Source: Escherichia coli (GTDB lineage Bacteria; Pseudomonadota; Gammaproteobacteria; Enterobacterales; Enterobacteriaceae). Taken from it: a DNA stretch of 64,000 bases. Location of the stretch: the NCBI RefSeq assembly GCF_041248615.1, contig NZ_CP158426.1; one strand, 5' to 3'. Made by a program: the position numbers. This document shows, piece after piece, positions 3,001 through 6,000 of the stretch (position 1 is its first letter; each line of letters opens with the position of its first letter).

Positions 3001-6000
3001 TAAGCCCACCGATTCTTGCGGCGATGATGCTGGTGATGGGCTGGCGCGGGATGTTTATTACCATTGGTGTACTGGGGATTTTTCTCGCCATCGGCTGGTA
3101 TATGCTCTATCGCAACCGCGAGCACGTAGAACTGACTGCCGTTGAACAAGCTTATCTCAATGCAGGTAGCGTCAATGCCCGCCGAGATCCGCTCAGTTTT
3201 GCCGAATGGCGCAGCCTGTTCCGTAACCGCACAATGTGGGGAATGATGCTCGGATTCAGTGGCATCAACTACACTGCGTGGCTGTATCTGGCCTGGCTTC
3301 CTGGTTACCTGCAAACAGCCTATAACCTGGATTTAAAAAGCACAGGGTTGATGGCGGCTATCCCTTTCCTGTTTGGGGCTGCCGGGATGCTGGTCAACGG
3401 TTACGTTACTGACTGGCTGGTCAAAGGGGGAATGGCTCCGATTAAAAGCCGTAAGATCTGCATTATTGCCGGGATGTTCTGTTCTGCCGCCTTTACGCTG
3501 GTCGTACCGCAAGCGACAACATCCATGACGGCGGTTCTGCTGATTGGCATGGCACTGTTCTGTATTCACTTTGCCGGAACATCCTGCTGGGGCTTGATCC
3601 ACGTCGCAGTTGCTTCTCGCATGACGGCGTCGGTGGGCAGTATCCAGAACTTTGCCAGCTTCATCTGCGCCTCTTTTGCGCCGATCATTACTGGTTTTAT
3701 TGTTGATACCACCCACTCATTCCGTCTGGCACTAATCATCTGCGGTTGCGTCACCGCAGCGGGGGCACTGGCGTACATCTTCCTGGTTCGTCAGCCGATC
3801 AACGACCCGCGTAAAGATTAAACTCCCTATGCCCGATAACATTTTGCTTATCGGGCATTTTTATGGCGATTAAAACGTTTCCCAATTCTCGCCGCTATCT
3901 GCCACGGCCATTTTACGCGGCGTAGCTGGCGTCACGGTTTTTACTACAGCCGATGTTTCACGCTGCTGTTGCTGCTGTTGCTGAATCCGGAACACTGCCA
4001 CAGCTTCGGTCAGGCGACTGGCCTGCTCTTCCAGCGCGGCAGCGGCGGCGGCAGATTCTTCCACCAGCGCGGCGTTCTGTTGAGTTACCCGGTCCATCTC
4101 AGCAACCGCTAATCCAACCTGATCGATACCACGGCTCTGCTCATCAGAAGCAGAAGCAATTTCGCCCATAATGTCCGTCACGCGGGTCACGGCACTGACA
4201 ATCTCCGCCATTGTTTCCCCTGCGCTTTCGACCAGCGTAGAGCCAACATCCACTTTCCCCACCGAGTCTTCAATCAGGCTTTTAATTTCACGAGCCGCCT
4301 GGGCGCTGCGCTGGGCCAGATTACGCACTTCTCCCGCGACCACCGCAAAACCGCGCCCTTGCTCACCCGCGCGCGCTGCTTCAACCGCCGCGTTCAAAGC
4401 CAGAATATTGGTCTGGAAGGCAATGCCGTCAATTACGCTGATAATATCGGCGATTTTCTGCGAACTGGTGGAGATATCGCGCATAGTCTGCACCACGTTA
4501 TCCACCACTTTGCCGCCGCGTTGCGCCGTTTCAGAAGCACTTAACGCCAGCTGGCTGGCCTGGCGCGCATTTTCGGCGTTCTGCTTCACCGTTGCGGTCA
4601 GTTGCTCCATGCTGGCTGCCGTCTCTTCCAGCGAAGCGGCCTGTTGCTCGGTGCGCGAAGAGAGATCGTTATTACCGGTGGCGATTTCGCTGGCACCGCT
4701 ATAGATGGCATTGGCCCCGTTGCGCACATCACCGACGGTACGCATCAGCTCTCCCTGCATATGGCGCAAACTCTCTGCCAGTTGCCCCATCTCATTAGAG
4801 CCATCTACCTCAATCGGTTTCACCAGATCGCCGCCTGCAATATGACGAATGCTGTCAATCAGGCGATTCATTGGCGCTACCAACGAGGCTTTAATACCGA
4901 ACCAGACGGCGAAGATGACCGCCAGTACGACGATCATCACGCCCACCAGGATCCACATCGCCTGGCTGTAGGAGGCATTATTATCGCTGACGGCGATATC
5001 ATAGAGCCGATCGTTTTGCTCCATGTAAGCCACATACTGCTTCTCGAAACCGTCCTGATATCCCTGGGTCGGCTGATCAAAGAACTCGTTGATTTTGCCT
5101 GCACCTAACAGTTGGATCAGCTCCGCCAGCGCATTGTGATAAATATCGTAATTACGTTTGATCTCTGCCGCTGCGGCGGTGCTCTGACGCGGGTCACGCG
5201 GCAACGCTTCGTAATCCGCCCAGTTTTTTTCCGCCTGTTTCAGCGAAATACTGGCACTCTGCATCAGCTCAGCAACGGTTGAACCGCTACCAATATTATT
5301 CTGATCCATCATGTAGCGGATACCCGCGCGGTTGAGGGTGTTACGCGTCTGCAACAACGCAACCCAGCTGCCATTCAGCGTGGATTGCTGCTGGCGAATG
5401 GTTTGTAAAACAGTGAAATTTTCTTTGTCATTCTTTAAGGCATTAAAGAACAGACCGCCTGATGTCAGTTGTAAAAGGCCAAAAACGGCCAAAACCAGCA
5501 GTAAGCTGGTCACAATTTTGATACGTTTTAACATGGTTTCTCTTTCCTGTGGACCGATGCAAGATTTTCGGCCTGGAAAGCAAAAACTTTATGAAAAGGT
5601 GTAACCCGCCATCCATGGAAAAACCAGGCGCTGGTTATCAGATATTAAAAAGTTATTCATTATCGCCCGGGATGTCTTCTTGTCGGGAATTACCCAGAGC
5701 AATAAATTCCTCTAACAGATGGGTTAACTGTTGCATTTTCTCGGCAGTAAACTGAGCTTCAATCTGCCGATAGGCTTCTTCAATCTGTGTCTGAGCGCGG
5801 TTATACAGGGCCTGCCCCTCTTTGGTCAGCGAGATATAGAGCTTCCGCTGATCATTGATCGGCTTTAATCGCAACACTAAACCGTCGCGTTCCATCCGCG
5901 TGAGGATCCCGGTCAGGCTTGGGCGCAAAATGCAGGCGCGATACGCCAGATCGTGAAAATCCATTGATGGGCTTTCCGCCAGAATACGCACGATGCGCCA

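Follow-up and report, generated by a model that had tools for sequence, protein, structure and literature searches.

The FliA (sigma-28) class 3 promoter of tsr in an Escherichia coli strain whose hpa cluster adjoins the gene

We analyzed a 64-kb stretch of DNA from Escherichia coli (contig NZ_CP158426.1, 64,000 nucleotides; hereafter the window), in which tsr occupies positions 3870–5534 of the minus strand. The encoded 554-aa serine chemoreceptor matches the NCBIfam model PRK15041 over its full length (1223 bits against a cut-off of 947). PRK15041 is a methyl-accepting chemotaxis protein model; the promoter examined here thus precedes a chemotaxis gene, with a full-length Tsr open reading frame. 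The adjacent upstream gene, hpaR, lies on the same strand at 5653–6099 (TIGR02337 HpaR, 200 bits against a cut-off of 121; RefSeq). The window is collinear with E. coli strain 144, whose RefSeq annotation of the identical region names both tsr and hpaR and places the hpa (4-hydroxyphenylacetate) cluster, here at 5653–16773, between tsr and btsT. Downstream of tsr, a strong bidirectional terminator hairpin shared with lgoT is located at 3829–3858 (−15.6 and −17.4 kcal/mol). The fliA gene itself is outside the window.

Two other parts of the window deserve a brief description. A restriction-related cluster at about 20600–30000 comprises a DUF262 protein, a type I restriction-modification system (hsdR, M and S; EcoAI family), symE and a GmrSD-domain endonuclease, named here as RefSeq names them in the collinear strain 144. 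Just upstream of btsT, at about 17040–17162 on the plus strand, is a 123-bp segment that is missing from K-12; it is a dispersed intergenic repeat, found in 5425 of 5426 E. coli genomes with a median of nine copies per genome, and it may be an ERIC/IRU-like element.

Read on the minus strand, the DNA preceding tsr has the layout ...CCTTTTCA TAAAGTTT TTGCTTTCCAG GCCGAAAA TCTTGCATCGGTCCACAGGAAAGAGAAACC ATG, which includes the motif TAAAGTTT-N11-GCCGAAAA at 5565–5591. The −35 octamer TAAAGTTT (5584–5591; T5591-AAAGTT-T5584) carries all eight sigma-28 consensus bases, and the spacer TTGCTTTCCAG (5573–5583) has the 11-nt length typical of sigma-28 promoters. The −10 octamer GCCGAAAA (5565–5572; G5572-CCGAAA-A5565) carries seven of eight consensus bases, with the extended −10 GC and the core CGA intact. 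Compared with the sigma-28 consensus TAAAGTTT-N11-GCCGATAA, the sole mismatch is A5567, which replaces a T at the sixth base of the −10 octamer. The octamer ends 30 nt before the tsr start codon, whose ATG is at 5534. The first-pass annotation had described a near-consensus FliA promoter with one mismatch at this place, and both the minus-strand reading and the shuffle tests below confirm it; its span of 5565–5592 was correct at the start and one base too long at the end.

Short bipartite motifs do arise by chance, and the motif could in principle be a fortuitous resemblance, with another promoter driving tsr in this strain. We consider that reading extremely improbable, beginning with the statistics of the match itself. 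When at most one mismatch is allowed, the tsr site is the single match in the 64-kb window, and none of 100 dinucleotide-preserving shuffles of the window contained any. At up to three mismatches, two matches are found against 0.69 expected. We also scored the window with a weight matrix derived from 47 published FliA sites of K-12 other than that of tsr, by which the tsr site ranks first among about 128,000 window positions, with 19.4 bits and a runner-up at 16.6. An equal matrix score was reached somewhere in 4 of 300 shuffled windows, which leaves some room for chance by this measure. The missing consensus T, present at the sixth −10 base in 46 of 48 other K-12 FliA sites, costs the tsr site about 5 bits in the matrix.

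Several lesser FliA-like sequences occur elsewhere in the window. The second-best weight-matrix match, TAAAGAGCGGCGGCATCTGGCTGATAAT at 53145–53172 on the minus strand (16.6 bits), is within the range of shuffled sequence. At 36889–36916, also on the minus strand, GGATAAACTGCAGATCTTTGCCGATATT corresponds with one difference to an intragenic FliA ChIP-seq site inside yjiN of K-12, a site that scores no more than 1 and whose function is doubtful (PMC4183435). On the plus strand, AAAGATTAAACTCCCTATGCCCGATAAC at 3813–3840 is the homologue, with two differences, of the K-12 FliA site named 'tsr/yjiZ convergent', a weak ChIP-seq site with a score of 3 (PMC4183435); here it overlaps the lgoT stop codon (3819–3821) and the upstream arm of the terminator hairpin at 3829–3858, and is oriented antisense into the 3′ end of tsr. 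A second candidate FliA site at 10901–10927 on the plus strand, inside the hpa genes, has three mismatches and was treated as a chance match.

Knowledge of the FliA promoter of tsr dates from the late 1980s, and both RegulonDB and genome-wide FliA maps include it. The K-12 promoter, tsrp, occupies the same locus in front of the same gene, and from 5 bp upstream of the −35 octamer through the ATG it is identical to the window at 61 of 62 positions. The two octamers, including the non-consensus A in the −10 element, the spacer length and the leader are all the same; the one difference is a spacer base, C in K-12 and G5581 in the window. In K-12 MG1655, where the motif upstream of tsr is given as TAAAGTTTTTCCTTTCCAGGCCGAAAAT, FliA occupies this promoter with the third-highest ChIP-seq score in the genome (94-fold above threshold), exceeded only by fliC (110) and motA (101) (Fitzgerald 2014, PMC4183435 Table 2). 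Deleting fliA reduces tsr RNA from 630 in the motile parent to 9 (PMC4183435), and a sigma-F microarray study, which assigns tsr to the sigma-F regulon, recorded a change of −5.4-fold (Zhao 2007, PMC1935009). The structure of the sigma-28 open complex describes the roles of the extended −10 GC and of the G and the flipped A of CGA (PMC12784957), and the tsr mismatch falls on the base after that flipped A. Given the high ChIP-seq score in K-12, the mismatch is evidently no bar to strong occupancy there. The placement of tsr in the flagellar and chemotaxis regulon through a class 3 FliA promoter, as had been proposed from the sequence, therefore agrees with published experiments on an almost identical K-12 sequence. 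The exact coincidence of the motif with an experimentally defined promoter (PMC4183435) is a further argument against a chance resemblance.

Two other chemoreceptor-type promoters of K-12 place the tsr site in context. The tar-tap-cheRBYZ promoter is also FliA-dependent and has the same −35 octamer TAAAGTTT and an 11-nt spacer (PMC4183435), but its −10 octamer is the perfect GCCGATAA where tsr has GCCGAAAA. Its FliA ChIP-seq score is 57, compared with 94 for tsr (PMC4183435), and tar heads a six-gene operon, whereas tsr is monocistronic. The aer promoter, TAAAGATA-N11-GCCGACAT, is likewise a sigma-28 promoter of a chemoreceptor-type gene, but its full activity depends on CRP bound at −49.5, while no effect of CRP on tsr was detected (PMC2859248). 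The DNA upstream of tsr is not conserved even within E. coli. CRP co-regulation of the kind found at aer and trg was accordingly rejected as a candidate: the K-12 CRP site, 132.5 bp upstream of tsr, has no detectable effect on the gene (PMC2859248), and the same site in the window stands beside btsT at about 16814–16833 (TTGTGATCTCAATCACATAT), 11 kb away.

We next turn to the start of transcription. A mapped start at odds with the motif's spacing had been chosen beforehand as the refuting test, and what we found is consistent with the spacing. A published comparison table, which quotes RegulonDB and one Cappable-seq data set, lists distances from the tsr start codon of 245 and 24 in K-12 (RegulonDB 10.5) and of 182, 111, 75 and 24 in O157:H7 EDL933 (Cappable-seq), with a difference of 0 between the two strains (PMC10469882 Table S5); its distance convention leaves a 1-nt ambiguity. 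In an O157:H7 sequence, counting 24 nt back from the ATG leads to the A of TTGCATCGG, which is the seventh base after GCCGAAAA. The window has the same heptamer context, and we therefore place its start, by homology, at A5558 (±1) on the minus strand, 24 nt upstream of the ATG and the seventh nucleotide after the −10 octamer. This agrees with the start about 6–7 nt downstream of the −10 octamer that characterizes sigma-28 promoters. The aer start, mapped by primer extension, is 6 bp after its −10 octamer (PMC2859248), so that the spacing at tsr is as expected. A correctly spaced mapped start also speaks against a chance resemblance. Among other start-site sources, the supplement texts of PMC4782308 (Cappable-seq) and PMC3415461 (Kim 2012), possibly shortened, yielded neither tsr nor its coordinates, and the supplement of the ROSE paper has no tsr entry.

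The leader that would result is short. The 5′ UTR at 5535–5557 contains a purine-rich, Shine-Dalgarno-like AGGAAAGAG at 5540–5548, and the 24-nt leader is without significant structure when its folding is compared with that of shuffled sequence (−2.5 kcal/mol, z = −0.09). An RNA element in the leader was considered and rejected: it folds no better than shuffled sequence, and the single Rfam match, to NRON at 15 bits against a cut-off of 50, is meaningless.

The promoter is widely conserved. Of 5426 complete E. coli genomes, 5195 contain the 65-nt segment from promoter to ATG, and in 1926 of the 5195 it is at least 99% identical to the version in the window. To compare species, we took one genome per species and located tsr by a degenerate pattern covering codons 1–9 of Tsr, a sample that is unbiased towards the promoter and limited to proteins beginning MLKRIKIVT. 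All 19 enterobacterial Tsr orthologues so found, from Escherichia, Salmonella, Citrobacter, Kluyvera and Pseudocitrobacter, have TAAAGTTT-N11-GCCGA[A/C]AA located 28–32 nt before the ATG. A Cedecea paralogue has a version of the motif with three mismatches, and three chance matches of the codon scan in unrelated taxa have at least six mismatches to it. Among 23 distinct enterobacterial tsr upstream sequences, the −35 octamer is invariant, the spacer is always 11 nt long with a moderately conserved sequence, and seven of the eight −10 positions are invariant. The most common base has a mean frequency of 1.00 over the −35 octamer, 0.95 over the −10 octamer and 0.80 over the spacer; the corresponding values are 0.51 for the 40 nt upstream and 0.57 for the 14 nt downstream. 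Good conservation of the flagellar FliA promoters has also been stated in the literature (bioRxiv 10.1101/188474), in agreement with these data. A core that is invariant over five genera while its flanks diverge is not what a chance resemblance would leave. As a side observation, the tsr frame is broken after about 25–30 codons in Citrobacter koseri NCTC10786 (L019:2685-3230) and Kluyvera genomosp. 3 YDC799 (L013:3-548), with a frameshift or an assembly error as possible causes; both retain an intact FliA promoter.

Beyond the core, the upstream DNA differs between lineages. We found at least four upstream contexts of tsr within E. coli: hpaR-tsr, as in the window; btsT-tsr, as in K-12; a MurR/RpiR regulator next to tsr; and btsT-hypothetical-tsr, as in O157. 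A five-way alignment contains no shared DNA beyond about 5 bp upstream of the −35 octamer, and all of its sequences keep ATAAAGTTTT-N7-CAGGCCGA. By both pairwise and five-way alignments, the edge of the DNA shared between hpa-positive and hpa-negative E. coli (TTCAT) is at 5592–5597 on the minus strand, and in hpa-negative genomes the BLAST match begins at query base 206, which is window position 5595. Upstream of the −35 octamer, the window and K-12 are unrelated, with an 11-kb hpa cluster ending in hpaR in the one and the btsT-tsr intergenic region in the other. Four haplotypes with unrelated upstream DNA thus keep the core, and the K-12 CRP site is without effect; together, these observations indicate that the core promoter is self-sufficient. 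With respect to the hpa segment itself, we observe that the 11-kb cluster occupies the place of about 90 bp between btsT and tsr in K-12, and that its homology breaks are at 5592–5597, near the tsr −35 octamer, and at about 16774–16833, next to the CRP site that was kept with btsT. E. coli B strains are also hpa-positive, and they are generally described as lacking the part of the fli region that holds fliA.

The tsr promoter had further been described as independent of the hpaR transcript. This holds for the promoter's autonomy, because it is active in K-12 and O157, both of which have no hpaR upstream. Insulation from hpaR is less certain, as only a weak hairpin stands between the two. That hairpin, AACCAG-CGC-CTGGTT (5622–5636) on the minus strand, lies after hpaR and is followed by a U-run (feature 5619–5636). 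At −4.8 kcal/mol it is a poor terminator at best; it is no better than shuffled sequence (z = −0.35), and its inner pair is missing in another hpa-positive lineage. A terminator scan called none between the hpaR stop codon (5653–5655) and the promoter.

Consequently, we weighed whether the FliA promoter is supplemented in hpa-positive strains by transcription from upstream that supplies an appreciable part of the tsr mRNA, either by read-through from hpaR or from a sigma-70-like start in the 3′ end of hpaR. The arrangement would permit it: hpaR has the same orientation as tsr, with only 61 nt between its end and the −35 octamer, the single intervening hairpin compares poorly with the −15.6 and −17.4 kcal/mol of the tsr/lgoT terminator, and a sigma-70-like site matching 9 of 12 bases is present at 5686–5659. 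Additional upstream tsr starts also exist in other haplotypes, at 245 nt in K-12 and at 182, 111 and 75 nt in EDL933 (PMC10469882). However, 98.6% of tsr RNA is lost from K-12 without fliA (PMC4183435), so that upstream starts contribute little there. The sigma-70-like match is itself at chance level, with three such sites in the window against 2.8 expected, and a search of the hpaR-tsr intergenic region for a sigma-70 promoter returned none, the nearest weak match being inside hpaR. The hpaR promoter is described in the hpa literature as weak and autoregulated, which also counts against an upstream contribution. Our literature search returned nothing mentioning both hpaR and tsr and nothing relevant on an hpaR terminator. 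On balance, we regard an appreciable upstream share as unlikely, and the FliA promoter as the source of tsr mRNA that best explains the data.

The non-consensus base of the −10 octamer has its own pattern. Across the 23 enterobacterial tsr promoters, the sixth base is A in 14, C in 9 and never T, while the other 15 consensus positions do not vary at all. The K-12 aer promoter also lacks T at this base and has the same C as those nine sequences. One might propose that selection holds this base in a non-consensus state to set the strength or kinetics of the promoter, by which tsr responds to FliA levels differently from tar. If true, this setting would be one factor in how the Tar/Tsr ratio depends on growth, a dependence for which a 2026 preprint still regards the mechanism as open and 'likely transcriptional' (PMC12934607). 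The A and C states both occur within Escherichia and within Citrobacter, and the pattern also fits simple ancestry with few changes between A and C at a tolerant position. With so few independent changes, the absence of T is not statistically compelling, and we hold a selected setting to be quite improbable.

Taken together, the site is almost certainly the established sigma-28 (FliA) class 3 promoter of tsr, here in an E. coli strain whose hpa cluster adjoins the gene, and a chance resemblance is effectively refuted. All features of a sigma-28 class 3 promoter that can be tested on sequence are present, and the near-identical K-12 allele has the experimental ones. By homology with K-12 and EDL933, FliA occupancy, FliA dependence and the start site would be expected to hold in this strain as well. 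FliA-RNA polymerase would recognize TAAAGTTT (5584–5591) and GCCGAAAA (5565–5572) across the fixed 11-nt spacer, open the DNA at the −10 element and start near A5558, with no upstream activator needed. The predicted product is a monocistronic tsr mRNA that has a 24-nt leader and would end at the strong hairpin common with lgoT (3829–3858). FliA is itself made from a class 2 promoter, and FlgM blocks its activity until assembly of the hook-basal body has finished, a coupling that runs via FlhDC, FliA and FlgM. Consequently, tsr would belong to the late-expressed genes, along with those for flagellin, the motor and the Che proteins.

The tsr FliA promoter was already known and is met here in a different upstream context. 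As a discovery it carries little weight; the turnover of upstream contexts and the base that is never T are small points for specialists. It serves as a positive control, in which a sigma-28 promoter was recognized from raw sequence with coordinates right to one base. For E. coli, the result means that four kinds of accessory DNA abut the tsr promoter within about 5 bp of its −35 octamer and leave it undisturbed, the core needing no upstream element.
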